DNA from: a virus
Taxonomy: Duplodnaviria; Heunggongvirae; Uroviricota; Caudoviricetes
Virus record (IMG/VR): IMGVR_UViG_2718218136_000009
Coordinates: 1-13,902 of that record
DNA length: 13,902 nucleotides
Strand: one strand, 5' to 3'
Shown: in pieces, positions 1-13,902 of the stretch
How positions within the stretch are numbered: the first letter of the stretch is position 1
Layout of the letters: each line of letters starts with the position of its first letter
The notes under the pieces: generated by a model
The model's input: the letters and a program-made list of their open reading frames with translations, nothing else
Told to the model about the DNA's origin: nothing
Databases searched by the model: none
Program-made: the position numbers and the translations under genes

Positions 1-1230
1 ATGAGCAGAGCACTTAACAAACTGAGCGATACACAGCTAAGAAAAATCAACGGCACACCAGCCCCAAAAACCACATTTCTTAATGACGGTGGAAACCTGA
101 GTATCAGACACTCCACCAGCGGCCTGTTAACCTGGTATTTCACCTACAGGGCAGGAACAGGACGCCAGGTATCACCGGAACGCCTGAAACTGGGAAATTA
201 TCCTGATCTGAGCCTGAAAGCAGCCAGGGAAAAAGCAGCACAGTGTCGCGCATGGCTGGCAGAGGGAAAAAATCCACGCCATGAGCTTAATTACTCCATA
301 CAGGAAGCACTAAAGCCGGTAACGGTGGGCGATGCGATCAGCTACTGGCTGGAAATGCACGTAAAGGAAAACCGTGTCGATTACGTCTCCCTGAAAAGCC
401 GCCTGAATAATCACGTCATACAGCATATTGGCAATATGCCACTGGATAAATGCGAGTTACGTCACTGGCTGGCCTGTTTTGACCGGATACGCAAAAAATC
501 ACCCGTAACATCTGGCCACATGATGCAGGCGTGCAAACAGGCGCTTAAGTTCTGCCGTAAACGTCGCTACGCAGTCAGTAACGTTCTGGATGATCTCAAC
601 GTGGTGGACGTTGGCAAAAAGCCGGGCATAAGCGAACGCGTGCTTAGTAACAAAGAACTGGGCGAATTATTACAGGCACTGGATAAAAAAATATTCCCAC
701 CCTACTACAGCGCACTAATCCGCCTCCTGATTGTGTTTGGCTGCCGAACCGGAGAACTGAGGCTGTCGGAGATCAGGGAGTGGGATTTTAAGGAAATGCT
801 CTGGACGGTACCGAAAGAACACAGCAAAACGAAGGTCGCCATATTCAGGCCAATACCGGAAAGCATTTTACCGTTCGTCACGCTGCTGGTGGAGCAGAAC
901 AAACACACAGGGCTATTACTCGGGGAACAGAAACAGGAAGCCAGCGTGTCGCAATACGGCAGATTCATGCACAAAAAATTAAACCATTCGCACTGGTCAC
1001 TACACGATATACGGCGCACGTTTACCACGATGCTGAACGATTTAGGCGTGGATCCGCATATTGTCGAACAACTCACCGCTCACCAGATGCCAGGGATGCA
1101 GCGAGTCTATAACCACTCCCGTTATCTCGATGCGAAACGTAACGCGCTGGATATGTGGACAGAGCGATTAGAGATACTGGCAGGTGCTCACGAAAACGTA
1201 ACCACACTGCCAATAGCCAGAGAAATATAA
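1..1230 (+). CDS. int: Tyrosine-type site-specific integrase (P4-like phage integrase family)
   Basis: 409-aa ORF starting at ATG. N-terminal arm-binding-like region (LSIRHSTSGLLTWYFTYR). Catalytic-domain motifs GCRTGEL (box I Arg), HDIRRTF (box II His-x-x-Arg) and a C-terminal Tyr region (VYNHSRY). Size typical of P4-type integrases. Confidence 0.9.
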   Translation: MSRALNKLSDTQLRKINGTPAPKTTFLNDGGNLSIRHSTSGLLTWYFTYRAGTGRQVSPERLKLGNYPDLSLKAAREKAAQCRAWLAEGKNPRHELNYSIQEALKPVTVGDAISYWLEMHVKENRVDYVSLKSRLNNHVIQHIGNMPLDKCELRHWLACFDRIRKKSPVTSGHMMQACKQALKFCRKRRYAVSNVLDDLNVVDVGKKPGISERVLSNKELGELLQALDKKIFPPYYSALIRLLIVFGCRTGELRLSEIREWDFKEMLWTVPKEHSKTKVAIFRPIPESILPFVTLLVEQNKHTGLLLGEQKQEASVSQYGRFMHKKLNHSHWSLHDIRRTFTTMLNDLGVDPHIVEQLTAHQMPGMQRVYNHSRYLDAKRNALDMWTERLEILAGAHENVTTLPIAREI

Positions 1231-1254
1231 TTTTTTTCGCGATTTTTTAGAACG

Positions 1255-1313
1255 GAAACAACGTGAAACAACGAGACACCACGACGAACAACGGCGAACA
1301 ATCTGGAACAAAC
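1255..1313. repeat. Six tandem 10-bp-phased GAACAA-core repeats between int and alpA
   Basis: Units begin at about 1255, 1265, 1275 (degenerate GACACCAC), 1285, 1295 and 1305: GGAAACAACG, TGAAACAACG, AGACACCACG, ACGAACAACG, GCGAACAATC, TGGAACAAAC. Preceded by T-tracts at 1231-1247. Confidence 0.75.
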
Positions 1314-1597
1314 TTGATTATCATCTGACTGACACCCTAAAAAGTTGATTTTCAGTCGTTTTACTGGCTTTTTGTACATTGGCGAATCACTCTTAAAAAC
1401 ATGTAAAAAAGGCGTAAAAACAGAATTTTATGCCTTTGCACCACAATGAATTAAAAGAGTTTTTATTCTCATTACCCCACTTCTGTAAAATGACCGCCGC
1501 CAGTGTTTGCCATTCCATAAACACCCTGACACAATCCGACGCACCACAACACAATAGGACACCAAATAACTCTTTAAGAAATATCAAAGGGGGAATT

Positions 1598-1786
1598 GTG
1601 TTAAGCACAGATCGCTTTATACGTGAAAAAGAATGTCAGCAACTTACAGGCCTGAGCCGCTCATGTCGGTACCGCCTGGAAAAAGCCGGACAATTCCCAT
1701 CACGGCGTAAGCTCGGCGGTCGTTCTGTTGGCTGGTCTTTATCCGAAGTTCTGGCATGGAAGGACAGCTGCGAGGCAGTTCACTAA
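1598..1786 (+). CDS. alpA: AlpA-family (excisionase-like, MerR-superfamily HTH) transcriptional regulator
   Basis: Sequence DRFIREKECQQLTGLSRSCRYRLEKAGQFPSRRKLGGRSVGWSLSEVLAWK matches the AlpA/prophage regulatory protein pattern (HTH followed by SVGW...E...W). Start chosen at in-frame GTG 1598 after SD AAAGGGGG (1586-1593), giving 62 aa. The upstream ATG at 1430 would add a low-complexity 56-aa extension with no SD. Confidence 0.8.
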   Translation: MLSTDRFIREKECQQLTGLSRSCRYRLEKAGQFPSRRKLGGRSVGWSLSEVLAWKDSCEAVH

Positions 1787-2204
1787 TCAGGCTGGCGGCA
1801 CACAGCCGCCACCCATCCACTAATACAGAGATCTAACCATGAATACTGGATATACGCCTGTACAGGGGCGGGGCTTCGTTCGGCCTGAAAACCAGAATCT
1901 GCAAAATTTCGCCGAAATTATTCCGGTTATTTCCGGCCTTATTGGCGGGAGTGAAACCAATATTGTTAACGCCAGAGCGTTGCAGATGTTTGATGATGAA
2001 AAGGGAGTAAATTTAACTTACACCCCTGACGGCAATCAGAATATGAGCATTATCTCTGAGTCAGTTTTCTACAAACTAATAAAAACAAAAAGCGCCCCGT
2101 TGCCGGAGCGCCCTTGCGAACAATTAACCTGCTGCGAAAAAAATGGATCAGTGCAGGGGAATTATATCAACCGTGTGGCGAAGCGCCACAATTGCCGGAT
2201 AACA

Positions 2205-2235
2205 GGTAAAACAAAGGCCACCCGCGACGGTGGCC
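2205..2235 (-). terminator. Rho-independent terminator for the minus-strand RHH gene
   Basis: Read on the minus strand: 7-bp GC stem GGCCACC / GGTGGCC (2216-2222 and 2229-2235) with a 6-nt loop, followed by UUUGUUUU (complement of 2208-2215). A second hairpin TGTGGCG-aag-CGCCACA lies at 2174-2190. Confidence 0.5.
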
Positions 2236-2338
2236 CCTCGACACAAGCTACACGTTATCCCCAACGCATGAGCATAGCCAACAATGCCACATTTGCGGCT
2301 GGTGGGCAATGTGATCAGTGTGCTGGCTTGCTGGTGGG

Positions 2339-2518
2339 CTATTCCTGCTCTTTGGCCTTGCGGCGCTGGCGGCGTTTGATCTCGCCACGCATGGCTGCGC
2401 TTATAAACTGCCCTGTACTTTCGCCTTCTTCTTTCACTTTTTCCATGCCTTCAATAATTTCATGGGCAATACGTGCAGTTACAGATTGTGATTTTGCATT
2501 CTTTGGACCTGTTGCCAT
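2339..2518 (-). CDS. Ribbon-helix-helix (CopG/Arc/ParD-like) DNA-binding protein, candidate repressor of the element
   Basis: 59 aa (MATGPKNAKSQSVTARIAHEIIEGMEKVKEEGESTGQFISAAMRGEIKRRQRRKAKEQE). Beta-strand-like SVTARI followed by two short helices, as in ParD/Arc, then a basic tail. Strong SD AAGGAG six nt upstream of the ATG on the minus strand (complement of 2525-2530). Only credible minus-strand gene in the window, divergent from the early operon. Confidence 0.7.
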   Translation of the reverse strand: MATGPKNAKSQSVTARIAHEIIEGMEKVKEEGESTGQFISAAMRGEIKRRQRRKAKEQE

Positions 2519-2539
2519 GTCTAACTCCTTATGTTTTTG

Positions 2540-2620
2540 GTGTAAGACAATATACACGAAAAAAAATTATTTTGAAGGATTGACGTGTAAGACACTACTG
2601 CTTTACATTGTGTCTTACAC
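2540..2620. promoter_or_regulatory. Divergent promoter region with three operator-like 11-bp sites (GTGTAAGACAC)
   Basis: GTGTAAGACAa at 2540-2550, GTGTAAGACAC at 2585-2595 and its exact reverse complement GTGTCTTACAC at 2610-2620 (11-bp inverted repeat, 14-bp spacer). Rightward -35 TTGACG (2580-2585) and -10 TACATT (2604-2609) overlap sites 2 and 3. A leftward -10 TATATT (complement of 2550-2555) lies next to site 1. Confidence 0.6.
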
Positions 2621-2717
2621 CTTGTTTATGCAAGGTGCAGAAACGACGAAACCCCGCACTGTTGGAGCAGTAACGGGGCTTCTAACCACCAACGATAGCA
2701 GAAGTATCGAGGTAGCT

Positions 2718-2924
2718 ATGTTAAATCATACCACACACCCGCAAGGGCGGGACTCGCACAACCTGAATAAATACATCTGGCGTTTTATCGCCCTGAGCAC
2801 CGCACAACCGCGCGTGATTCACATCGAGGCCACCAGCGAACAGGAAGCACGCCAGCAATCCCCGGCTGGTTGCGTGATGGTATTCGCCGCCCGTATTCGT
2901 CAGGGGGTACGCCATGTGCAATAA
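2718..2924 (+). CDS. Small early protein, tentatively Icd-like (host cell division inhibitor-like); first gene of the early operon
   Basis: 68 aa (MLNHTTHPQGRDSHNLNKYIWRFIALSTAQ...TSEQEARQQ...). SD GAGG five nt upstream of ATG 2718. The family assignment is from memory of Icd-like proteins in P4-type islands and is not verified. Confidence 0.5.
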   Translation: MLNHTTHPQGRDSHNLNKYIWRFIALSTAQPRVIHIEATSEQEARQQSPAGCVMVFAARIRQGVRHVQ

Positions 2925-3174
2925 CACCCGTCCGGACGCAGCCGCCGAAGCTATAAAAACACTGATTGATGCGCTGATTGATATTTCTGTTATCGCAGAC
3001 AAGGCGCATAAGCACGCCACCAGCGAAACAGAATATGCCGGGGCTTTCGTTCCTCACTCACTGGCTGTTATGCAACTTAGTGCTGATATGGCGCTGAATG
3101 AGGCCAAAGCCATCCTGATTGCTGATTGTGAAAATGGGGGGGGGTTATGCGTGATGATCGTTTTAATGCCCTGA
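2914..3174 (+). CDS. Hypothetical protein (86 aa)
   Basis: ATG overlaps the upstream stop (ATGTGCAATAA). SD-like GGGGG at 2903-2907. Helical-looking composition. Reads through a G9 tract at 3136-3144. Confidence 0.5.
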   Translation: MCNNTRPDAAAEAIKTLIDALIDISVIADKAHKHATSETEYAGAFVPHSLAVMQLSADMALNEAKAILIADCENGGGLCVMIVLMP

Positions 3175-3380
3175 AACAGGAATTTGATGGCGCACCGGAT
3201 GATACAGGCGATGCGTTGCTGGCTGTTAATGACCTGATAAAGGCCGCATATTTTCTTATTCATACCGCTGAATACATATCAACGGGCACAGATGTTCTTA
3301 ATATTGCGTCGGACTATGCGGAATATGTTGCAGAGGCGCGTTACAGAAGAAAATTCCCGGAGGATGTAAGCCATGGATAA
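3147..3380 (+). CDS. Hypothetical protein (77 aa)
   Basis: ATG immediately after the G9 tract, which can act as SD. Overlaps the upstream ORF by 28 nt. Operon context. Confidence 0.5.
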   Translation: MRDDRFNALKQEFDGAPDDTGDALLAVNDLIKAAYFLIHTAEYISTGTDVLNIASDYAEYVAEARYRRKFPEDVSHG

Positions 3381-3579
3381 AATCCCTTTCGATGTTCTTA
3401 TTCATTCTGAGAATGCATTAAACCGGGCACTGGAAATGAAAGCGGTATTAATTAAATTAACCGAAGTTCATGCCGAACAGGGGGATTTATTTTCTGCTTT
3501 CAGCACTCTGTTAACCCCGGTTATTGATGAATTAAACGCGGTTATGGAAATACACGACAAGACCCGCGCAGAGGAATAA
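3373..3579 (+). CDS. Hypothetical protein (68 aa)
   Basis: Start overlaps the upstream stop (ATGGATAA), indicating translational coupling. Operon context. Confidence 0.5.
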   Translation: MDKIPFDVLIHSENALNRALEMKAVLIKLTEVHAEQGDLFSAFSTLLTPVIDELNAVMEIHDKTRAEE

Positions 3580-3584
3580 AAACC

Positions 3585-3884
3585 ATGAAACAGAAAAATT
3601 CTGGCTTTACTGCCAGCGGCTCCGCTCGGCCTGAAATCCGCCCCGGCGATATTTTCCGGGATAACTACGGCGGCACGGTAACGATTAAAAGCGTGGCGGG
3701 ACGGTGTGTTACTTACCGCCGTGAAGGTTATGACTATGACTGCGTGATGCCTGTTTATCAGTTCCGCCGTGATTTTTCTCTGGTACAGGCAGCGCAACGC
3801 AGTAAGCCCACCAGCAGGGAAAAAGCACGGGAAAATATTAAGAAAATAAAAAGCATGCTCAGCGCATCCAGAGGTAAAAAATGA
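3585..3884 (+). CDS. Hypothetical protein (99 aa)
   Basis: SD GAGGAA (3571-3576) eight nt upstream of the ATG. Stop overlaps the Rep start (ATGA). Confidence 0.55.
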   Translation: MKQKNSGFTASGSARPEIRPGDIFRDNYGGTVTIKSVAGRCVTYRREGYDYDCVMPVYQFRRDFSLVQAAQRSKPTSREKARENIKKIKSMLSASRGKK

Positions 3885-5287
3885 AACTGGCACCGAACGT
3901 AAAACTGTTACCGAAAGATAAACACACTGAGGCGGTTATTTTTGCGGGTGATAATGCTCACTCCTTTGCAGAACATTACATGATTGCACAGGCCAAAAAA
4001 GCAGGCGATCCCATCCCTCCGGTTTACCTGGGCCGTTATCAGTTAAGCGAACTGGACAATTTACAGATTGTTGATGAAGGACGATACAGAGCAAAGGTCA
4101 TACGCGCCGGAAACCTGGACGATATGCAGATGCTGACCATTGCCACAAAACTGGCGATCGCAGGTGTCCGGGAAGCGCGGTTACTTTCAGAGAATTTCGA
4201 ACTACTGGAGGACTGGGGCGAGCAACTACCGCGCCTTAAAGAAACCTGGGAACGTGGGGAAAGCCTGGTCATGAATGGCGGAAAGCGAAAAATCACACTT
4301 CCCATCTCATGGGGTTCTGAGGGATTCGACGCGCAGCAAAGCTACGTAATTAAGGGGCTTATTCCGGCTGAATCATTATGCAGCACCTACGGGGCCAGCG
4401 GCTCTTATAAATCGTTCCTGGCTATTTCCTGGTCGTGCCATGTTGCCACAGGTATGGCATGGGGAGGCCGCAGGGTCAGTAAGGGCGCGGTTATCTATAT
4501 CGCTGGTGAAGGCAGCATGGGCGTAAAACGCCGCGTTAAGGCGTGGGAGATAACCCACGACAAGGTGGTTACAGATTTGTGCATCATTAACGCGCCTGTC
4601 TTCCCTGCATCGCCTGACTATGTGGAGCAGGTTATCAGAACTGCCGGACTTGTTAAGAGCAGAACGGGCGAAAATGTGCGGCTGATTGTGATAGACACGC
4701 TGGCCCGTTGCTTTGGTGGGAATGATGAAAATGATTCCCGTGATATGGGCGCATTTATCCAGGGGTGTGACGCGATAAAGCAGGCCACAGGGGCCACGGT
4801 GCTGGTGGTTCACCATTCCGGCAAGGATGAAACAAAGGGGGCGCGTGGTTCCAGCGCATTCCGTGCCGCACTGGATGCAGAGTACCGAATCAGCCGGGAA
4901 AATTCAGACGTTACAGCACTGGTGGCGGCGTGTACGAAGATGAAGGACGCAGAGGAGCCAAAAGAAAGCGCATACGACCTTAAAAGCGTGGAGGTGTTTA
5001 CCGATACAGATGGCGAAGAGATTGTGTCCATGGTGGTGATTGACGTTCCCCGCGCCCCTGCTGAACTGGAACGCATCGAGGAGGCCGGGAACAAGACGGA
5101 AAATCACACGGCTTTATGGGGTTGTATCCGATCACGTATACAGCATGGTGATAAATGCACGATCCCGTTGCTACGTGACGACATGAAAAAGCTGGGATAT
5201 GACACAAAACACCTTAAACGATGGTTAGCAAAACTGGAAAAAGACGGCGTGATTTGCGTCGATGGGGATGATGTTCACCCACTGTAA
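3881..5287 (+). CDS. RecA-like/AAA_25-type P-loop ATPase with C-terminal winged-helix region; candidate replication initiator or helicase (Rep)
   Basis: 468 aa. Walker A GASGSYKSF, Walker B LIVIDTLARC, and VLVVHHSGKD as in RepA/DnaB-C-like ATPases. SD GAGG six nt upstream. An iteron array follows the stop directly. Confidence 0.8.
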   Translation: MKLAPNVKLLPKDKHTEAVIFAGDNAHSFAEHYMIAQAKKAGDPIPPVYLGRYQLSELDNLQIVDEGRYRAKVIRAGNLDDMQMLTIATKLAIAGVREARLLSENFELLEDWGEQLPRLKETWERGESLVMNGGKRKITLPISWGSEGFDAQQSYVIKGLIPAESLCSTYGASGSYKSFLAISWSCHVATGMAWGGRRVSKGAVIYIAGEGSMGVKRRVKAWEITHDKVVTDLCIINAPVFPASPDYVEQVIRTAGLVKSRTGENVRLIVIDTLARCFGGNDENDSRDMGAFIQGCDAIKQATGATVLVVHHSGKDETKGARGSSAFRAALDAEYRISRENSDVTALVAACTKMKDAEEPKESAYDLKSVEVFTDTDGEEIVSMVVIDVPRAPAELERIEEAGNKTENHTALWGCIRSRIQHGDKCTIPLLRDDMKKLGYDTKHLKRWLAKLEKDGVICVDGDDVHPL

Positions 5288-5488
5288 AAAGTGGGCGTTA
5301 AAAGTGGGAATAGTGGGTAATTTAACCGAAATTTAACAAAATCGCCCACTTTCCCACGTGTATACATCCAAAAAAGTGGGCACTAAAAAAATACTTATGA
5401 AACAGTACGATATAAAACCACAAAATCCCAGGTGGGACGAAGTGGGAAACCATGAAAAGTGGGCAGAAAAAGTGGGCACAGGTGGGCG
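5286..5488. repeat. Iteron array (about 11 copies of A/G-GTGGG, consensus AAAGTGGGCA) with central AT-rich segment; candidate replication origin
   Basis: AGTGGG cores at 5290, 5303, 5312, 5375, 5441, 5458, 5471; GGTGGG at 5431 and 5481; inverted copies CCCACT at 5345-5350 and CCCAC at 5353-5357. AT-rich stretch 5384-5427 between the iteron groups. Position is immediately 3' of the Rep gene. Confidence 0.7.
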
Positions 5489-5489
5489 C

Positions 5490-5741
5490 ATGACAAGAAA
5501 AACCAGAGATAAGACAGCACCAAAATATAAAGCGTTAGACATGACAGAGCACGCCTTAAAGGTGGCAATCAGAACGATAGACCGCCACGCCGGGGAAGGA
5601 TACGCGAAAGCACATCCCGAACTGATAAGCGCATTCATGACCACGACGGCGGCAAACTTTGCCACGCTGACAGAACGGGAGATTGCCGAAGCGGAACAGG
5701 TGACAACCATCAACGTTAAAACCGGAGAGCATACAGCATGA
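5490..5741 (+). CDS. Hypothetical protein (83 aa from ATG 5490)
   Basis: The reading frame opens at GTG 5358 inside the iterons. ATG 5490 follows the last iteron and AGGTGGG. ATG 5398 and 5541 are alternatives. Stop overlaps the SSB start. Confidence 0.4.
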   Translation: MTRKTRDKTAPKYKALDMTEHALKVAIRTIDRHAGEGYAKAHPELISAFMTTTAANFATLTEREIAEAEQVTTINVKTGEHTA

Positions 5742-6163
5742 CAGCACAGATAGCGGCTTACGGGCGGCTGGTGGCTGACCCGCAGTTAAAGACCACCAGC
5801 AAAGGGACACAAATGGCGATGGCGAGTATGGCGGTTCCCCTGCCGTGCAGCCAGGCCGATGACGGAACGGCGACGATGTGGTTATCCGTCCTGGCGTTTG
5901 GCAGACAGGCCGACGCACTGGCAAAGCACCACAAAGGCGAACTCGTGAGCGTGGCGGGTAACATGCAGGTAAGCCAGTGGACAGGCCAGAACGGCGAAAC
6001 GCGGCAGGGCTGGCAGGTTATCGCAGACAGTGTAATCAGTGCCAGAACGGCGCGACCGGGCGGCAAAAAAGGCCAGCAGGGCCAGGCCACTGACGCACTG
6101 AACAGGGCAAAACAACAGACAGGCCAGCACGATGACCCGTACGGGGACGGGATACCGTTTTAA
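5738..6163 (+). CDS. ssb: Single-stranded DNA-binding protein (SSB-like)
   Basis: 141 aa. OB-fold-like core (AAYGRLVADPQLK..., WLSVLAFGRQADALAKHHKGELVSVAGNMQVSQWTGQNGETRQ) and acidic C-terminal tail ending DGIPF, as in the bacterial SSB D-D-D-I-P-F tip. SD GGAGAG upstream. Confidence 0.8.
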   Translation: MTAQIAAYGRLVADPQLKTTSKGTQMAMASMAVPLPCSQADDGTATMWLSVLAFGRQADALAKHHKGELVSVAGNMQVSQWTGQNGETRQGWQVIADSVISARTARPGGKKGQQGQATDALNRAKQQTGQHDDPYGDGIPF

Positions 6164-6199
6164 TTCACAACAGCGAACAGAGTAATTACAGGGGAAGGC

Positions 6200-6730
6200 A
6201 TGACAAAGATGACCATTAACCGAAAACCGAAAGGCATTTACGGCACGCCGCAGAAAATACCGCAGGCGGCACAGCAGCAGGATAAAACCACATCGGCGCA
6301 TAAAGTGATACCCGGCAATCAGAACGCACAGCAGAAACCCACAGGGGCGACAGCGTGGCGGCATATGACCAAACGCCAGCGCAAAAACCGCAGACGCGTT
6401 AACCGCCTTATTGAATTGTGGCCAGAATTATTCAGCCGGGAAGCACCGAAGCCGCTTAAGGTGGGGATATTCGACGACCTGATGCAGGATATCGCCGCCA
6501 GGGGGCTGACATTCGGGCCGGGGGCATTACGTGCGACGCTGGCATCCTATGCGCAGTCTCCGCGCTATTACCGCGCCTTAATAGCTGGTGGGGTACGCTA
6601 CGACCTGAAAGGCCAGCCATGTGGGGAAGTGACACCACAGGAACAGCAGGAGGCAGAAACGCGGCTGATGGCGCTGAATGAGAAGCACAAGCGCCAGCGC
6701 CGGGCAGCAAAGGGGGATACATGCCAGTGA
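6200..6730 (+). CDS. ProQ/FinO-family RNA-binding protein (FinO domain)
   Basis: 176 aa. Segment LFSREAPKPLKVGIFDDLMQDIAARGL...LRATLASYAQSPRYYRALIAGGVRYDLKGQPCGEVT aligns by eye with the E. coli ProQ N-terminal domain ([23 protein letters not shown]...LRSALRLYTSSWRYLYGV...RVDLDGNPCGEL). Basic, disordered N-terminal extension. ATG 6209 is an alternative start. Confidence 0.8.
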   Translation: MTKMTINRKPKGIYGTPQKIPQAAQQQDKTTSAHKVIPGNQNAQQKPTGATAWRHMTKRQRKNRRRVNRLIELWPELFSREAPKPLKVGIFDDLMQDIAARGLTFGPGALRATLASYAQSPRYYRALIAGGVRYDLKGQPCGEVTPQEQQEAETRLMALNEKHKRQRRAAKGDTCQ

Positions 6731-6969
6731 CATTTGAAGAAGTTCAGCAACATAAAAAGTTTCATGGTTTTGATGATCTGGAAACCACGACAGCAAAAAA
6801 ATATCGCCGTCTGCTTTCTTCCGATGCGTTGTTTGTTGTGGATCATCATGATTTTCTGCGCAGCTCACTGACCGGGGAAATTTTCGCAACCAACCGTGAG
6901 CAGGTGGAAGCGATGATCGAATATCTGTGGAAAATAAGACGCAGAATGCGGGATCCAGTGAAACAATAA
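6721..6969 (+). CDS. Hypothetical protein (82 aa)
   Basis: Start overlaps the ProQ/FinO stop (ATGCCAGTGA). SD AGGGGG upstream. Last gene of the early operon. Confidence 0.5.
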   Translation: MPVTFEEVQQHKKFHGFDDLETTTAKKYRRLLSSDALFVVDHHDFLRSSLTGEIFATNREQVEAMIEYLWKIRRRMRDPVKQ

Positions 6970-7024
6970 AGCGATAAAGGCCTGGATTTTTTTTCAGGTC
7001 TTTTTTTCAGGTTTTGTAAATTAT

Positions 7025-7050
7025 TTGTTCGTGGTTGTTCCAGGTTGTTC
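7025..7050. repeat. Three TTGTTC repeats at exact 10-bp phasing upstream of the capsid operon (reverse complement of the int-alpA GAACAA repeats)
   Basis: TTGTTC at 7025-7030, 7035-7040 and 7045-7050. The reverse complement cGAACAAcctgGAACAAccacGAACAA closely matches 1285-1313 (cGAACAAcggcGAACAAtctgGAACAA). Tandem TTTTTTTCAGGT repeats sit just upstream at 6987-7012. Confidence 0.7.
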
Positions 7051-7244
7051 GGTGATTCTGGCTGATGTTTACATACTGATTTTTATGTATATGTTGGCGT
7101 GTGGCACTCAGACGTGAGCCGCCACAATGCCGCCTGACCCCCTGCGCGATGCCGGGTTGATCTGCGAGATGCCGAGAGTGTCGGGCGGCGCTCCCTCCGT
7201 GTTGGTTTCACGTCCTGAATCTTAACCAATACGAGAAAACCTTC

Positions 7245-8414
7245 ATGAAGAAATTAATCGAACTCCGCCAGCAAAAAACCGCCCTGAAAAACCAGATGCG
7301 ATCCCTGCTGGAAAAAGCCGACAGTGAAAACCGCAGCCTGAACGATGACGAGGGCAAACAGTTTGATGAACTGCGTGCAAAAGCCGATTCCCTCGACACA
7401 GAAATTTCCCGCCTCGAGTCTGTGGCTGATGAAGAACGCAGCAAGCCAGGAACGGGCATCCAGAAATTATCATCTGATGAATTGCGTAACTATATCGTAA
7501 CCGGAGATGTGCGATCACTGTCCACCAGCACTGACAGCGGCAGGGATGGCGGATATACCGTAATTCCTGAGCTTGATCGCGAAGTCATGCGCCAGCTACA
7601 GGATGACAGTGTTATGCGCGTGATCGCGACCGTGAAGACCGCAAAATCAAATGAGTTTCAGAAACTGGTTTCCACTGGCGGCGCAACTGTAGGAAGAGGC
7701 ACAGAAGGCAGCGCGCGCAGCGAAACCAACACCCCGAAAATTGAACGCGTAACCATCAAGCTGAATCCGATCTACGCCTACCCGAAAACCACGCAGGAAA
7801 TCCTGGATTTTTCAGAGGTGGATATTCTGGGCTGGTTATCCTCCGAAATTGCCGACACGTTCGCCAGCACCGAAGAGGATGATTTTGTTAATGGCGACGG
7901 TAACGGCAAGCCGAAAGGATTCATGGCTTACACCCGTGCGGCGACCAGTGACAAAACCCGCGCTTTTGGCACCATTGAAAAAATGGTAGCGGCAAGTGGA
8001 ACCGCCATTACAGCGGACGAACTGATCGACATTCTCTACAAGCTGAAAGCGAAATACCGCAAAAATGCCGTCTGGGTGATGAACTCGGGCACGGCAGGGA
8101 CACTACAGAAGCTGAAAAATGAGAACGGCGATTATATCTGGCGCGACAGCCTTAAAGAAGGTGCGCCGGATATGTTGCTTGGTCGTCCTGTTTACTGCCT
8201 GGAGTCCATGCCGGACATCGGCGCAGGAAAAGCACCGCTAGCGGTTGGCGATTTCAGTCGTGGTTATTTCATCGTTGATCATGTAACAGGGATTCGCACC
8301 CGACCGGACAACATTACTGAACCCGGATTCTACAAGGTCCACACGGATAAATATCTGGGCGGTGGTGTGGTGGATTCAAACGCCATCAAAATTCTGGAAA
8401 TGAAAGCTGGCTAG
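7245..8414 (+). CDS. Phage major capsid protein, HK97 family
   Basis: 389 aa. N-terminal coiled-coil delta-domain-like region (MKKLIELRQQKTALKNQMRSLLEKADSE...LRAKADSLDTEISRLE) followed by a capsid-fold-sized body. Immediately upstream of the prohead protease and portal genes. Confidence 0.85.
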   Translation: MKKLIELRQQKTALKNQMRSLLEKADSENRSLNDDEGKQFDELRAKADSLDTEISRLESVADEERSKPGTGIQKLSSDELRNYIVTGDVRSLSTSTDSGRDGGYTVIPELDREVMRQLQDDSVMRVIATVKTAKSNEFQKLVSTGGATVGRGTEGSARSETNTPKIERVTIKLNPIYAYPKTTQEILDFSEVDILGWLSSEIADTFASTEEDDFVNGDGNGKPKGFMAYTRAATSDKTRAFGTIEKMVAASGTAITADELIDILYKLKAKYRKNAVWVMNSGTAGTLQKLKNENGDYIWRDSLKEGAPDMLLGRPVYCLESMPDIGAGKAPLAVGDFSRGYFIVDHVTGIRTRPDNITEPGFYKVHTDKYLGGGVVDSNAIKILEMKAG

Positions 8415-8426
8415 TCATGAGTAAGG

Positions 8427-8448
8427 AGGAGGCTGCGGCCTCCTTTTT
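8427..8448 (+). terminator. Rho-independent terminator or attenuator directly after the major capsid gene
   Basis: Stem AGGAGGC (8427-8433) / GCCTCCT (8438-8444), loop TGCG, then a T-run to 8448. Lies between the capsid stop (8414) and the protease start (8469). Confidence 0.6.
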
Positions 8449-8468
8449 CAGCTTTATGGAGTACACCG

Positions 8469-9029
8469 ATGAAAAACACCGATTTTGAAATCCGCACATC
8501 TGAACTGACCGCCAGCGATAAAAAACTGGTGGGTTATGCCGTTCGCTGGAACAGCCTTTCAGAAATTATCTGGGACGAATTCCGCGAACAGTTCACGCCG
8601 GGGGCTTTTGCTGACTATCTGGCGGCGGGTAATGATGTGCGCTGCCTGTATGAGCATGACTATACCCAACTGCTGGGGCGCACCAAATCCGGCACTCTGG
8701 TACTGACTGAGGATAACACCGGGTTACGTTTTGAGCTGACACCGCCGGATACCCAGCTTGGAAAAGATGTGCTTACGCTGGTGGAGCGTGGCGACATTAC
8801 AGGAATGAGCTTTGGTTTTCGCGCATTATGCGAGGAGTGGAGTATCGCGCAAAAACCGTATTTGCGTACCGTAACTGCCGCAGAACTCCGTGAAATCACG
8901 ATAACGTCGATGCCTGCTTATCCCGAATCCGGCGTGGAGATTGCCCACCGTTCGTTGTTTGCACAGCACCCTGAATTACGCCCGGCAGGAAATAATCGTC
9001 ATCGCTGGGCTGAACTGGCGGGGTTGTGA
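8469..9029 (+). CDS. Prohead maturation protease, HK97 family
   Basis: 186 aa. Motifs typical of HK97-type prohead proteases: GYAVRWNSLSE, FTPGAF, CLYEHD...LLGRTKSGTLVL, RGDITGMSFGF. SD GGAG seven nt upstream. Confidence 0.85.
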   Translation: MKNTDFEIRTSELTASDKKLVGYAVRWNSLSEIIWDEFREQFTPGAFADYLAAGNDVRCLYEHDYTQLLGRTKSGTLVLTEDNTGLRFELTPPDTQLGKDVLTLVERGDITGMSFGFRALCEEWSIAQKPYLRTVTAAELREITITSMPAYPESGVEIAHRSLFAQHPELRPAGNNRHRWAELAGL

Positions 9030-9030
9030 T

Positions 9031-10254
9031 ATGTGGTGGCCTTTTAGTCGTAAAAAAAGCGAGCTGCGTAACCTGTCCATTGATGATTTTCTGGCGCTGT
9101 CCGGCGTACCGAATACCGGAGCCGGAGAATATGTTTCTGCCGGGACGGCTGAATCATTGCCTGCTGTGATGAACGCGGTTTCTGTCATCGCTGAGGCGGT
9201 GGCCACGATGCCGTGTTATCTGTATCTGGTACGTAATGACAAGGGCAGGGAGGCGCGGGAATGGCTGGACAGTCACCCGGTCGATATTCTGCTGAATGAG
9301 CAGCCTAATTCGTGCCAGACACCTTACCAGTTTAAACGCACAATGATGCGTCACTGCCTGCTGAACGGTAACGCCTATGCGGTTATTGAGTGGGGGCGGG
9401 ACGGTCAGCCAAAATCACTTCATCCTTATGCGCCGGGGTGTGTTGTACCGGAACGCACAGGCGCACACAAATACCGCTATACCATCACCGAACCCTATAC
9501 AGGAACGGTGCGCACGTATTTACAGGAAGAAGTTCTGCATCTCCGCTATGCCTCGGATGATGGCTTTCTGGGGCGCTCCCCTGTCACGATTTGCCGTGAG
9601 GCACTTGGGCTTGGCCTTGCTCAACAGCGCCACGGAGCCAGCATTATGAAAGATGGCATGATGGCGGCAGGGATTATCACGTCAGGCGAATGGCTGGACG
9701 GCGTGAAAGGTAAACAGGCATTGGATGCTCTGGAACGCTACAAGGGGGCGAAAAATGCCGGAAAAACGCCAATCCTTGAAGGGGGCATGGATTACAAGCA
9801 ACTGGGAATGAGTAACCAGGATGCGGAATGGCTGGCCTCCCGTCGCTTCTCCATTGAAGACATTGCCCGTATGTTCAACGTATCGCCTATTTTTCTGCAG
9901 GAATACAGCAATAGCACCTACAGCAATTTCAGCGAGGCAAGCCGCGCGTTTCTGACCATGACAATGCGCCCATGGCTGGCGAACTTCGAACAGCAAATCA
10001 AGGCTGCTTTGCTGGTGGCTTCTCCCGTACCTGGTACCCGTTATCTGGTTGAGTTTGATTCAGCCGATTTACTGCGCGCCACACCTACCGAACGTTACGC
10101 CACGTATGAGAAAGGAATTAAGAACGGGATCATGAATCCGAACGAAGCCCGTGAGCGTGAGGGAATGCCGCCGCGTGAAGGTGGCGACGAGTTCAGCCAG
10201 GCATGGAAGCAGGAAGTGACAATCAGCAAGAACAGTAAGGGCGGTGACGAATGA
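9031..10254 (+). CDS. Phage portal protein, HK97 family
   Basis: 407 aa from ATG 9031, two nt after the protease stop. N-terminus MWWPFSRKKS...LSIDDFLAL and body (NAVSVIAEAVATMP, PILEGGMDYKQLGMSNQDAEWL, FSIEDIARMFNVSP) fit the portal pattern. The six-frame ORF beginning at 8941 is an upstream read-through of the frame. Confidence 0.85.
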   Translation: MWWPFSRKKSELRNLSIDDFLALSGVPNTGAGEYVSAGTAESLPAVMNAVSVIAEAVATMPCYLYLVRNDKGREAREWLDSHPVDILLNEQPNSCQTPYQFKRTMMRHCLLNGNAYAVIEWGRDGQPKSLHPYAPGCVVPERTGAHKYRYTITEPYTGTVRTYLQEEVLHLRYASDDGFLGRSPVTICREALGLGLAQQRHGASIMKDGMMAAGIITSGEWLDGVKGKQALDALERYKGAKNAGKTPILEGGMDYKQLGMSNQDAEWLASRRFSIEDIARMFNVSPIFLQEYSNSTYSNFSEASRAFLTMTMRPWLANFEQQIKAALLVASPVPGTRYLVEFDSADLLRATPTERYATYEKGIKNGIMNPNEAREREGMPPREGGDEFSQAWKQEVTISKNSKGGDE

Positions 10255-10589
10255 TAGCCGGAAATATGCGGGACCGGGTGACGATTATGACATTTACCAC
10301 ACAGCGCCTGCCGTCAGGTGCGATCCAGCAGATATGGACGGAAGGGGAAACCATCTGGGCAGAGGTCAAGGGGATCAGCGGACGGGAATTACTGACCGCA
10401 GGCGCAGAAACCGCACCTGCAACGATTCGGGTATGGGTTCGCTATCGTGGCGACATATCCGCCGCCAGTCGCCTGAAAGTGCTTACCGGCGCTTTTGCCG
10501 GGAGCACGCTTAATATCATCGGGATCCCCTTACCTGATGCGAAAAGAACCCGGCTGGAAATTCTGGCAAAGGTGGGTACAGAAAAATGA
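10251..10589 (+). CDS. Head closure / head-tail adaptor protein (gp16-like)
   Basis: 112 aa. N-terminal MRDRVTI motif and W...VKGISGRE pattern typical of head-tail joining proteins. Start overlaps the portal stop (ATGA). Confidence 0.65.
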   Translation: MIAGNMRDRVTIMTFTTQRLPSGAIQQIWTEGETIWAEVKGISGRELLTAGAETAPATIRVWVRYRGDISAASRLKVLTGAFAGSTLNIIGIPLPDAKRTRLEILAKVGTEK

Positions 10590-10882
10590 CAGCAGAAAAA
10601 ATAACCCTGGAAGAGGCCAAACTTCACTGCCGCATAGATGGTAACACAGAAGACACACTGATTCAGGCATACATAAGCGCGGCGCTGGAGGTATGCCAGA
10701 AGCATATTGGCAGGCGTTTTGATGACGGCCTGGAATTTACCCCTGCAATAAAAATTGGTTGCCTGATGTACATCTCGCAACTGTACGAGTACCGGACAAC
10801 GCTTGGCGATACCGATACAAAAGAAATTCCCCTGACGATTTCCGCGCTCTGGTCGGTTTATCGTGATGTGGGGGTGTACTGA
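10586..10882 (+). CDS. gp6-like head-tail connector protein
   Basis: 98 aa. ITLEEAKLHCRIDGNTEDTLIQAYISAA is typical of the gp6-like connector family. Start overlaps the upstream stop. SD AAGGTGGG upstream. Confidence 0.65.
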   Translation: MTAEKITLEEAKLHCRIDGNTEDTLIQAYISAALEVCQKHIGRRFDDGLEFTPAIKIGCLMYISQLYEYRTTLGDTDTKEIPLTISALWSVYRDVGVY

Positions 10883-11322
10883 TGCCATGGCAACCATTAA
10901 GGCGATGCACTGAGCCGGGCTGTAATAAGCGCGTGAAGTCCGGCAAGTGTGAAGAGCACAGGCGGGCTGCATGGCGTGCAGAGGATGCCAGACGGGGACA
11001 CCGCCGCGCACGTGGGTATTCCCGACTGTGGGACAAATACCGCGCCATGTACCTGAAAAAAAATCCGTTATGCGTGCGTTGTCTGGCTAAGGGTATTTAT
11101 ACGCCAGCTCTTGTGGTGGATCACATCATTCCCATCAATGGCGGCGGTGATGTTCTCTTCTGGCCTGAGTGGAACCACCAGGCATTGTGCCAGACGTGCC
11201 ACAACCGTAAGACGACACGGGAAGATCCAGCCACGAAAGCGAACCGTAAGGCGGGCATGTATCGCGAGCAGGAAGAACGGGCGGCACATCGTAACGACTG
11301 GATGTATGGCGATGATGACTGA
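10882..11322 (+). CDS. HNH endonuclease, phage packaging-associated
   Basis: 146 aa. Cys pairs (CTEPGC...CEEH; CVRC) and HNH core VVDHIIPINGGGD...NHQALCQTCHNRKT. ATG overlaps the upstream stop by 1 nt (TGATG). Sits directly upstream of TerS and TerL. Confidence 0.85.
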   Translation: MPWQPLRRCTEPGCNKRVKSGKCEEHRRAAWRAEDARRGHRRARGYSRLWDKYRAMYLKKNPLCVRCLAKGIYTPALVVDHIIPINGGGDVLFWPEWNHQALCQTCHNRKTTREDPATKANRKAGMYREQEERAAHRNDWMYGDDD

Positions 11323-11491
11323 ACAGGAGCAAAACAGGCTGATACGTGGACTGATAAGGCAGCGTGACTTATGGAAGACACAGGAGACAGGGCACAAAGC
11401 CAACAGGACAGAGCGCACAGAACGCACCACAGCGAAGCGATTAACCGACCGTGACCGCGAGGTCATGGAATGTTTTCGCAATCGCTGGTGA
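11306..11491 (+). CDS. Possible small ORF (61 aa) overlapping the HNH 3' end
   Basis: ATG 11306 in the +1 frame relative to HNH (MAMMTEQEQNRLIRGL...). No clear SD and no family recognised. May be non-coding. Confidence 0.25.
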   Translation: MAMMTEQEQNRLIRGLIRQRDLWKTQETGHKANRTERTERTTAKRLTDRDREVMECFRNRW

Positions 11492-11610
11492 GGCCGTCAG
11501 AGGGGGTGGGGGAGGTTTTCAGGACGAAACCGCCCCTGCCGGACACCGACCGCCTCCTCAAATTTTTGTGCACGGGAATTTTTTTGAAAATAATTGGGCG
11601 AAAAAAGAAC

Positions 11611-11967
11611 ATGGCAAGACCACCAAAAGCCCCCGCTTACCTGGATGAAATCGCGGTCAGGCAGTGGAAGGAAAAATCGCGCCAGCTTTCCGGGCGGGAA
11701 GACCTTACCCCCGCCGACTGGAGCAATCTGGAACTGTATTGTGTTAACTACTCCATATACCGCAAAGCCGTCGAAGACCTTGCGACGCGCGGGTTCAGCA
11801 TTGTTAACAGTCAGGGCAGCGAGAGCAGAAACCCCGCCCTGAGCGCAAAGGCTGACGCGGAAAGAATAATGATCAAAATGGCTTCTTTGCTGGGTTTTGA
11901 CCCGGTAAGCCGCCGCAGAAATCCACCGGAAACAGAGGAAGAGGACGAGCTTGACCGCCTGGCATGA
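11611..11967 (+). CDS. terS: Terminase small subunit (P27-family-like)
   Basis: 118 aa from ATG 11611: MARPPKAPAYLDEIAVRQWKE...LELYCVNYSIYRKAVEDL...NPALSAKADAERIMIKMASLLGFDPVSRRR, a pattern typical of P27-family TerS. The extension from ATG 11470 is low-complexity and not credited. Confidence 0.8.
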   Translation: MARPPKAPAYLDEIAVRQWKEKSRQLSGREDLTPADWSNLELYCVNYSIYRKAVEDLATRGFSIVNSQGSESRNPALSAKADAERIMIKMASLLGFDPVSRRRNPPETEEEDELDRLA

Positions 11968-13612
11968 GTACGCAGAAGGCGTAAAAAACGGCAAAATTAC
12001 GGCCTGTAAACGACTGAAACAGGCCGTTAAACGGTATTTTTATGACCTTGAAAACCCCCTTTACACGTTCGAACCGGAGGTCGTGGAGCGGTTTATTGCC
12101 TTTTCCAGGGTGTGTCCGCACGTAAAAGGCGCAATGCGTGGTAGCCCCATTGAGCTGGAGCCGTGGCAGCAGTTCGCCTTTGCGTGCATCCTGGGCTTTA
12201 AGGTTAAGGCCACCGGACGGCGCAAATACACCAGCGCATTCATTGAAGTACCGCGAAAAAATGCCAAATCCACGGTCGCCGCTATCCTGGCTAACTGGTT
12301 TCTGGTTATGGAAAACGGGCAGCAGGATATTTACACCGCCGCCGTGAGTCGTGATCAGGCGCGGATCGTGTTTGATGATGCGCGTCAGATGTGCCTTTTA
12401 TCCCGACCGTTACGAAAGCGGGTAAATATTCAGGCACACAAGGTGATACACCCGAAAACCAACAGCCTGTTAAAGCCACTGGCAGCAAAAGCGGCAACCA
12501 TTGAAGGTACAAACCCGAGTCTTGCCATTGTAGATGAATATCACCTGCACCCTGACAACGGGGTTTATTCCGCGCTTGAACTGGGAATGGGGGCGCGTCC
12601 GGAGGGGTTATTATTTGCCATCACCACATCGGGGAGCAACGTTGTTTCAGCCTGTAAACAACACTACGACTATTGCTGCCAGATACTGGATGGTGAAGAG
12701 GTGAACGAATCCATGTTCGTACTGATTTACGAGCTGGATGATGAAAGCGAGGTTGACGATCCGGCGATGTGGATAAAGGCGAATCCCAATATCGATGTTT
12801 CCGTCGATCGTGAAAAACTGGCCTCAACCATCCAGAAAGCGCGGGGTATTCCGTCGCAGTGGGTGGAAATGCTCACCAAGCGATTCAATATCTGGTGTCA
12901 GGGGGCTACGCCGTGGATGGGTAACGGTGCATGGGCGGAGTGCGCCGGAACGTTCACGGAGGCGGATTTATACGGGCAGGAGTGCTACGCGGGGCTGGAC
13001 TTATCATCAACCAGCGATATTTCCAGCGTGTGCTATGCCTTTCCGGTCGGTAAAAAGATTATGCTGGTTTCCCGTCACTATCTGCCGGAATTTCAGCTAC
13101 AGAACCCCGCCAATAAAAACCGCGCCATCTATCGCCAGTGGGTAAAGGCGGGCTGGATACGCACAACACCGGGTGACTGCATTGATTATGACCGTATCCG
13201 TGATGACATCATGGCGGATGCAGAGAATTTCAATATCAGGCTGGTGGGCTTCGATACATGGAACGCCACGCACCTGAGGACGCAGCTACAGGGCGCAGGA
13301 TTTGAGGTGGAGCCGTTCCCGCAAACATACCTTCGTTTCAGTCCGGCGGCGAAATCGTTCGAGGTTTTTGTTAACCGGAAGGTGATTGTGCATCGTGGTG
13401 ATCCGGTGCTGGCCTGGTCAATGAGTAATGTTGTGATGCAGAGTGACGCGAACGCCAATATCAAGCCGAACAAGAAAAAATCATCCAACAAGATAGACCC
13501 GAGCGTTGCGGCGCTGATGGCGTTTGGCACATTCCAGTCAGAGCATGAAGAATTTGCATTTGATATGAGTGACAGCCACAAAGAGCGGCTTGCGGCGTTT
13601 GATGGGGTATGA
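11951..13612 (+). CDS. terL: Terminase large subunit (Terminase_1-like ATPase-nuclease)
   Basis: 553 aa. First in-frame start is TTG 11951, preceded by SD GAGGAAGAGGA. Overlaps terS by 17 nt. Conserved N-terminus (AEGVKNGKITACKRLKQAVKRYFYDLEN), Walker A VPRKNAKST, Walker B LAIVDEYH. Confidence 0.9.
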   Translation: MTAWHEYAEGVKNGKITACKRLKQAVKRYFYDLENPLYTFEPEVVERFIAFSRVCPHVKGAMRGSPIELEPWQQFAFACILGFKVKATGRRKYTSAFIEVPRKNAKSTVAAILANWFLVMENGQQDIYTAAVSRDQARIVFDDARQMCLLSRPLRKRVNIQAHKVIHPKTNSLLKPLAAKAATIEGTNPSLAIVDEYHLHPDNGVYSALELGMGARPEGLLFAITTSGSNVVSACKQHYDYCCQILDGEEVNESMFVLIYELDDESEVDDPAMWIKANPNIDVSVDREKLASTIQKARGIPSQWVEMLTKRFNIWCQGATPWMGNGAWAECAGTFTEADLYGQECYAGLDLSSTSDISSVCYAFPVGKKIMLVSRHYLPEFQLQNPANKNRAIYRQWVKAGWIRTTPGDCIDYDRIRDDIMADAENFNIRLVGFDTWNATHLRTQLQGAGFEVEPFPQTYLRFSPAAKSFEVFVNRKVIVHRGDPVLAWSMSNVVMQSDANANIKPNKKKSSNKIDPSVAALMAFGTFQSEHEEFAFDMSDSHKERLAAFDGV

Positions 13613-13902
13613 CGAGAATGAGCGAAACCGAACTACTAAAAATAATCCGCCGCATTACCGGAATCAGCCAGGCAGCAGGCAAACAGGAGGCCACGCAGCC
13701 GGACAGCGTGATAGCCGAAAATTACGCGCGTGTGGTGGCTGAGGTGATGCGCCGTGATGGTATAGAGCTTAACGGCGTGGATATGCGCGACATACGAATC
13801 AGAGTTCTGGAGTTGTTGTCATATCGTCGCCGCGTGGAGATGTACCGGGAGAAAGAAAAAATTACTTACCACTGGAAGAAGCCGGAACGGTTACGGCGGT
13901 AA
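13609..13902 (+). CDS. Hypothetical protein (97 aa), last gene of the late operon
   Basis: Start overlaps the terL stop (ATGA); ATG 13618 is an alternative. No family recognised. Basic C-terminus. Confidence 0.45.
   Translation: MTRMSETELLKIIRRITGISQAAGKQEATQPDSVIAENYARVVAEVMRRDGIELNGVDMRDIRIRVLELLSYRRRVEMYREKEKITYHWKKPERLRR

Follow-up and report, generated by a model that had tools for sequence, protein, structure and literature searches.

What does the gene of an RNA chaperone do in a phage satellite, and on whose RNAs would its product act? Among bacterial RNA chaperones, the FinO-domain proteins form the third major class. To our knowledge, the characterised FinO-domain proteins of mobile elements (FinO, FopA and PcnR) are all plasmid-borne, and each controls its own element. 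In this study, we analysed an open reading frame (ORF) of 176 amino acids at 6200..6730 on the plus strand of a 13,902-nt stretch of viral DNA (positions 1 to 13,902 of IMG/VR record IMGVR_UViG_2718218136_000009, hereafter the window). A first-pass annotation had read a FinO/ProQ domain signature in this ORF by eye, had placed the gene in the replication module of a satellite, and had named two candidate RNA partners in cis, a non-coding stretch at 1787-2236 and the late-operon leader at 7100-7244.

Pfam and PHROG searches assigned int, alpA, a divergent ylcI/ynfO-like gene, an icd-like gene, DUF4222, a RepA-family AAA_25 helicase and ssb, and late genes in the order HK97-type capsid, protease, portal, head-completion protein, connector, HNH, TerS and TerL. 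Such a gene set defines a capsid-forming PICI (bioRxiv 10.1101/2022.09.08.507074), and by gene content the element is an Escherichia-type capsid-forming PICI (cf-PICI), so that the satellite context stands, also in view of the relatives. The window stops at 13902, just past terL, and the absence of tail genes is taken from the relatives L001 and L006 (comparison loci are designated L001 to L010). E. coli relatives are ~14 kb long with host genes on both sides and have the gene order of the window; the element is located within yifB in strain PEC148 and between rcnR and thiM in strain 702/18. The early operon reads icd-like gene, small ORFs, DUF4222, RepA-family helicase, phrog_1231, ssb, FinO gene and phrog_1957, and the ORFs from ~2720 to 6969 overlap or almost abut. 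Judged only from this spacing and these overlaps, the FinO gene is probably the penultimate gene of the operon, which is presumed to be AlpA-dependent. As described before, the FinO gene directly follows ssb and precedes the capsid operon (from 7245); the phrog_1957 ORF lies between the FinO gene and this operon. The FinO ORF has an ATG start with a Shine-Dalgarno sequence, GGGGAAGG, just 5' of it, and its stop codon is overlapped by the phrog_1957 start by 10 nt. The phrog_1957 ORF is kept with or without the FinO gene and was found in L001, L002 and L006. The features that matter for the argument are:

2580..6969, plus strand: early operon (ORF overlaps and short gaps, a promoter-like site at 2580-2609, annotation of relatives)
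5738..6163, plus strand: ssb, left flank of the cassette slot (Pfam SSB, 59 bits; protein 95-99% identical in L001, L002 and L006)
6164..6710, plus strand: exchangeable cassette (blastn against L001 and L006)
6200..6730, plus strand: FinO-domain protein gene (Pfam PF04352, PDB sequence matches, AlphaFold2 model with Foldseek, dN/dS of 0.10-0.30)
6464..6598, plus strand: codons of the predicted RNA 3'-end pocket and N-cap, G89, G106-P107-G108, R111, R122, Y123 and R133 (RocC and ProQ alignments, contacts from PMC9674577)
6721..6969, plus strand: small conserved ORF phrog_1957, right flank of the slot (PHROG match, 1.6e-36)

Several other parts of the element were compared among the loci. The DUF4222 stop overlaps the rep start in an ATGA at 3881-3884. 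The rep gene is swapped among similar satellites (window 3585-5287, L002 5931-8338, L006 5358-7471), the types being a RepA-family helicase, a DUF927 primase and a DNA primase family protein; DUF4222 lies immediately 5' in each variant, its stop overlapping the rep start, which suggests a conserved translational coupling of DUF4222 and rep. In the late region, a head-completion/head-closure gene at 10251-10589 (Pfam Phage_HCP; variable segment 10213-10678) is present in the window and L001; L002 and L006 have no counterpart, and their connector gene directly follows the portal gene. cf-PICIs need docking onto helper-phage tails, and the presence of Phage_HCP may affect which tails are usable. 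A 60-nt segment at 13623-13683, within the last ORF (13609-13902, no Pfam family), is common to the window and the classical PICI-like loci L007 and L008; these loci have next to no other sequence in common with the late region of the window.

The identity of the protein was addressed by profile, structure and fold searches. A Pfam profile search with the FinO ORF matched the ProQ/FinO family PF04352 at E=4.1e-25 and 88.3 bits (gathering cutoff 27 bits), spanning residues 64-168 and profile positions 5-108 of 109 (104 of the 109 positions). With the protein as query, solved structures were matched by sequence for the ProQ N-terminal domain (NTD; 5nb9, 8e-13) and FinO (1dvo, 7e-11), and further for NMB1681 (3mw6), Lpp1663 (6s10) and RocC (7rgt/7rgu). 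The AlphaFold2 (AF2) model, built on an input alignment of 49 homologs, has a pLDDT of 76-94 across residues 50-170, with helices at 58-73, 90-101, 107-118 and 121-129, a long helix at 146-171 and a beta-hairpin at 132-143; disorder is predicted for residues 1-49. When the model was compared with the PDB by Foldseek, the best 26 matches were exclusively FinO-domain structures, of FinO, NMB1681, RocC and Lpp1663, and the next match had E=2; the top TM-score (target-normalised) was 0.82, to RocC, with an rmsd of ~2.3 A. By domain and modelled fold, ORF 6200-6730 encodes a genuine FinO/ProQ-type RNA-binding protein. The signature seen by eye is upheld by all four lines (Pfam, solved-structure sequence search, AF2 and Foldseek), and the peptides quoted for it are all found, PLKVGIFDDL at residues 85-94, LRATLASYAQSPRYYRAL at 110-127 and RYDLKGQPCGEV at 133-144.

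Residues 1-57 of the protein form an N-terminal region that is basic and disordered; the FinO domain takes up residues ~58-145, and residues 146-176 make up a long C-terminal helix that ends in a basic tail. The N-terminal region is Q-rich, has a net charge of +8 over residues 1-57 and carries two motifs conserved in the clade, TINRKPxGIY and (P)WRHMTKRQRKNRRR. A ProQ-type linker or Tudor-like C-terminal domain is absent from the 176-aa protein in both the AF2 model and the profile match. The NCBIfam equivalog model for ProQ (NF003434) scored 59.6 bits against a cutoff of 127, with profile positions 6-117 of 205 matched, and the FinO model (NF010317) 66.4 bits against a cutoff of 136. The FinO model thus scores slightly higher than the ProQ model (66 versus 60 bits), but the protein stays far under both cutoffs, and a ProQ-like architecture is not what was found.

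Among the known systems, FinO of F-like plasmids (1dvo) shares the fold, with a best Foldseek match at E=1.2e-6 (rmsd 2.2 A, 30% identity), as well as the basic N-terminal extension, the domain, the C-terminal helix and the lack of a second domain, and both proteins are encoded on mobile elements. However, the two are only ~35% identical, the satellite gene resides on chromosomal islands and satellites whereas FinO resides on a conjugative plasmid, the N-cap serine of FinO is a glycine in the satellite protein, and the satellite has no finP/traJ-type partner. Classification as FinO proper, that is, a gene of the tra region of an F-like plasmid with finP/traJ, failed, all E. coli copies being chromosomal. 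The NTD of E. coli ProQ is the best solved-structure sequence match, but ProQ has the linker and second domain that the satellite protein lacks, and it is a core chromosomal global regulator whereas the satellite gene is optional island cargo. The RocC-RocR structure (7rgu) superimposes on the satellite protein model with TM-scores of 0.74-0.82 and an rmsd of ~2.4 A; RocC differs in its long C-terminal region and in having a single sRNA as its dedicated partner.

The residues that would touch RNA were located by alignment. In the structure of RocC with the RocR terminator, Gly52, Tyr87 and Arg97 form the pocket for the 3'-terminal nucleotide, and the helical N-cap Ser70/Lys71/Lys73/Arg75 contacts three consecutive hairpin phosphates (PMC9674577). 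In the HMMER alignment, the pocket residues correspond to G89, Y123 and R133 of the satellite protein; across the 49 homologs, Y123 and R133 never vary, and the conservation of G89 is at least 90%. The N-cap helix begins at the matching place (107-118 in the AF2 model) and R75 is kept as R111, but S70, K71 and K73 are replaced by G106, P107 and A109. Likewise, R32, K35, G37, D41, R58, R69, Y70, R80 and D82 of ProQ align with K84, K87, G89, D93, R111, R122, Y123, R133 and D135, whereas K54 and R62 have no equivalent (P107 and A115). From these alignments, the 3'-end clamp appears to be intact and the hairpin-reading edge to be unlike that of all characterised members, and with the altered N-cap the choice of RNA or the recognition of the hairpin may differ. 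Pairwise dN/dS of the whole gene against six homologous copies, which diverge up to dS ~1.2, is 0.10-0.30; by part, it is 0.09-0.18 in the FinO domain and 0.24-0.44 in the N-terminal region. Because of the whole-gene dN/dS of 0.10-0.30, the gene is under purifying selection and is functional, no relic.

Is the gene part of the replication module, as was first thought? In blastn comparison with L001, homology stops at 6163, the ssb stop codon, and restarts at 6711, 10 nt before the next ORF; in comparison with L006, it stops at 6162 and restarts at 6705. The right joint falls within the terminal ~20 nt of the FinO ORF, so that the final six codons and the stop codon of this ORF belong to the conserved flank. 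In L001, the closest relative (flanks 93-98% identical), a PerC-family regulator stands in place of the FinO gene, and in L006, a complete cf-PICI, the slot is empty and ssb is directly followed by the phrog_1957 ORF. When the slot states were counted by junction-spanning queries in 5,426 complete E. coli genomes, a FinO-domain gene was found in 43 genomes with both flanks required and in up to 83 otherwise, PerC in 33 and an empty slot in 44, and the three states are comparable in frequency. Instead of an integral part of the replication module, the FinO gene is, by its sharp borders and its replacement or absence in relatives, an optional and swappable single-gene accessory cassette, not a core replication gene. 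PerC is treated as an accessory gene in the PICI literature, too (PMC11773190). A second variable hotspot lies just 3' of the slot, at window positions 6985-7012. Here, a hypothetical gene of 507 nt on the minus strand separates the phrog_1957 ORF from the capsid promoter region in L002 (9842-10348) and L006 (8727-9233). This gene is missing from the window and L001; T-rich sequence at 6975-7010 marks the joint.

In cf-PICIs, the slot holds FinO, PerC or neither. In contrast, FinO and PerC genes stand in tandem after the replication genes in L007 (9011-9825), L008 (9001-9803) and L009 (9001-9797), PerC immediately downstream. These tandem islands, of E. coli 52F4, E. ruysiae and E. albertii, are classical PICI-like and capsid-free within 9 kb downstream. 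PerC-family proteins (e.g. EcCIMP1_025) thus share the slot with the FinO-domain protein but belong to an unrelated protein family and act on transcription, not on RNA. Because the two genes co-occur in tandem, the arrangement argues that FinO and PerC are not simple functional substitutes.

DNA homologous to the FinO gene was detected in 1,092 of the 5,426 complete E. coli genomes and was chromosomal in all of them; roughly one E. coli genome in five has a copy of this island clade. In a representative library of 1.84 billion proteins, the clade comprises only 9 clusters at E<=1e-30 and therefore appears to be narrow. RefSeq already labels it 'ProQ/FINO family protein'. A phage genome collection gave only 7 distant matches at 35-39% identity (Shewanella, Sodalis, Aeromonas and Cronobacter phages), and a typical phage gene was rejected on this basis. 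A plasmid collection gave essentially canonical FinO alone, and with FinO at ~35% identity over the domain as the closest plasmid protein, a recent plasmid origin was likewise rejected. A scan of species-representative genomes gave 9 loci, too few for statistics. The gene accompanies at least three types of replication protein (RepA helicase, DUF927 primase and other primases) and lies directly after the replication module in the window, L002, L007, L008, L009 and L010, across genera; a 49%-identical homolog in a Serratia oryzae island is again found after replication genes. CP4-57/PAI-type islands hold copies of 65-67% amino acid identity that stand alone, the surrounding 9 kb containing no PICI replication module. 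By sequence comparison, the clade is confined to enterobacterial chromosomal islands and has the altered N-cap. In the PAI/CP4-57-type islands L003 (7547-9360) and L005 (2343-9515), nucleoid-associated silencers (an H-NS family protein and Hha/YmoA) are encoded near the FinO-domain homolog, and YagK/YfjJ/inovirus-Gp2-family proteins are also among its neighbours; the silencers and the YagK/YfjJ/inovirus-Gp2-family proteins may form a recurring regulatory cargo set of such islands. A ProQ/FinO-like gene has been named as PICI cargo in a 2026 paper (PMC13612085), and episomal, capsid-forming satellite-plasmids of Vibrio carry one beside repA and parA (PMC13230959). For functional studies of PICI- or satellite-borne FinO proteins, our literature search gave annotation-level mentions only.

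Eight FinO-positive and two FinO-negative loci were compared by sequence. The gene itself (6191-6693) is the only DNA of the window that is present in at least four positive and in none of the negative loci, and no other co-inherited cis DNA was found among the ten loci at the sequence level.

With a probability of about 0.6, we favour the reading that the FinO gene, an optional accessory cassette in distal position in the early operon, encodes a trans-acting RNA-binding protein for terminator hairpins on RNAs encoded elsewhere. Upon induction by the helper phage, the satellite early operon would be switched on and the FinO protein made, expression being judged from gene spacing. With RocC, FinO and ProQ as models, the protein would clamp the base of an intrinsic-terminator hairpin and the 3' U-tail through the G89/Y123/R133 pocket and R111, and the basic disordered N-terminal region and the basic C-terminal helix could add RNA contacts. 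The bound RNA would be stabilised or would pair more readily with a partner. As no partner is inherited together with the FinO gene, the target RNAs would most likely be encoded elsewhere, be it by the host, by the helper phage or by other mobile elements. In this view, the gene would be satellite cargo that acts post-transcriptionally, like the PerC gene found in its place or next to it, rather than a gene with a core function in replication or packaging. The trans-acting part of this reading draws mainly on the negative comparison of ten loci, which a partner conserved in structure only would escape. Against it, the gene is repeatedly found right after replication genes, even in Serratia at 49% identity, and the Vibrio genes adjoin repA and parA, both of which would fit a replication-linked role. 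Against the terminator clamp, the N-cap changes from Ser to Gly106 and from the flanking lysines to Pro107 and Ala109 suggest that hairpin contacts may differ.

The main rival to the trans-acting cargo reading, possible if unlikely, is modulation of satellite replication or copy number in the manner of PcnR and FopA. The target of the protein would then be a stem-loop or an antisense RNA in the DUF4222-rep leader, and its binding would tune Rep synthesis after induction. PcnR, a FinO-family protein of IncI2 plasmids, binds a stem-loop in the repR leader, represses RepA and is non-essential (PMC8053102), and FopA acts together with Inc RNA on repZ (PMC9977716). Likened by their descriptions, PcnR (IncI2) and FopA (IncI1) are small mobile-element FinO-domain proteins and non-essential modulators, and the satellite gene likewise adjoins replication genes, directly following the replication module in the window and five of the other loci. 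The Vibrio satellites pair their ProQ/FinO-like gene with repA and parA, and the ATGA overlap would couple the translation of rep to that of the upstream ORF DUF4222, loosely as in repR-repA. However, PcnR and FopA have a leader stem-loop or antisense RNA as partner, and no cis element tracks with the satellite gene among the ten loci. L001 has the same RepA (96% amino acid identity) and DUF4222 without a FinO gene, which speaks against the PcnR/FopA type; the gene is found with at least three different replication proteins, and close homologs occur in islands without a replication module. Moreover, a promoter and terminator scan of the window gave counts not above those of shuffled sequence (24 terminator-like matches versus 18.4 +/- 4.4, no excess) and no convincing antisense promoter and terminator pair in the replication leader; the only strong terminators are those at 2238-2213 and 2115-2088.

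Improbable in our view is an inhibition of plasmid fertility or an interference with other elements, in which the protein would take the place of plasmid FinO on FinP/RepX-type antisense RNAs or bind RNAs of helper or competitor phages, to the gain of the satellite or its host. The repression of conjugation by FinO-FinP is a family precedent, and RocRp and RepX RNAs cross between elements and use the FinO-domain protein of another element (PMC9977716). The slightly higher score with the NCBIfam FinO model and the slot, an accessory position in PICIs, also fit. But plasmid FinO is only ~35% identical over the domain, neither the FinO protein nor its neighbours nor the alternative PerC matched a PADLOC defence model, and there is no link to F-like plasmids or to a particular helper phage.

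Still less probable is the proposal of the first-pass annotation, a dedicated regulator of the satellite life cycle that acts on the cis RNAs of 1787-2236 or of the late leader 7100-7244. The first region is not plainly non-coding, as had been assumed, but holds a decayed BRO-N gene fragment and two minus-strand intrinsic terminators. One of them (2238-2213, 10 bp stem) follows the ylcI/ynfO-like gene; the other (2115-2088, 12 bp stem, long U-tract) lies 3' of a perfect TATAAT (2166-2161) and could end a minus-strand small RNA of ~75 nt, with a predicted fold of -28.5 kcal/mol and z = -2.4. Both hairpins have A/U pairs at their base, as is typical of ProQ ligands (PMC12001967), and the late leader is moderately structured (z = -2.0). 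In contrast, the other terminator region has an unremarkable fold (z = -0.6), the fold analysis of the late leader revealed no hairpin followed by a U-tract and no terminator-type 3' end, and an Rfam search of the whole window at E<=1 gave no match, be it a C4/CI-type or another known RNA. Both regions exist without the FinO gene. In FinO-less L001, the late leader (6970-7244) is conserved at 99% and the 2078-2165 element at 94% identity, and in FinO-less L006 the leader is conserved at 94% identity, whereas both are absent from the four FinO-positive islands L003-L005 and L007. The terminator region 2088-2238 is 92-94% identical in L001 and L002 and partly kept in L008 of E. ruysiae.

The protein-coding content of the same stretch was followed up separately. 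A BRO-N domain in ORF 1839-2099 was rejected, as there was no Pfam match at E<=0.01. The BRO-N protein of L002 shows 53% identity over a stretch of 43 residues (residues 42-81 of the 361-aa ORF), and 1839-2099 looks like a decayed antirepressor-type gene fragment. The 361-aa ORF at 1839-2924 on the plus strand was rejected as a real gene, since it lies antisense to the ylcI/ynfO-like gene and spans the divergent promoter region; it is almost certainly spurious, and RefSeq annotates nothing in the homologous stretch of L001.

That the gene is a decaying passenger without function is barely credible: some copies are frameshifted or truncated (L004 and partial proteins) and the slot can be empty, but selection is purifying across copies of considerable divergence, the key RNA-contact residues are invariant, and the gene is kept despite the genome limit set by the small satellite capsid.

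Of the results presented here, the domain call was already known from RefSeq. New are the borders of the cassette, the three slot states, the recurrent FinO-PerC tandem, an island-restricted clade with an altered N-cap, and the evidence against a cis-linked partner RNA. The outcome is the correct annotation of an accessory gene and no new mechanism. Because FinO, PerC and empty variants of near-identical satellites exist in nature, the function of the gene, and with it the benefit of an RNA chaperone to a satellite, is directly testable. A more far-reaching version of the trans-acting reading, which we regard as rather doubtful, is that the island FinO clade is a satellite RNA effector that reprograms host or helper-phage transcripts at induction, or that competes with chromosomal ProQ for RNA 3' ends. 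By stabilising or silencing certain RNAs with terminators, such an effector might promote the production of the tails and host functions on which the capsid-forming satellite depends. If this were true, post-transcriptional hijacking would constitute a new layer of the conflict between satellite, helper phage and host.
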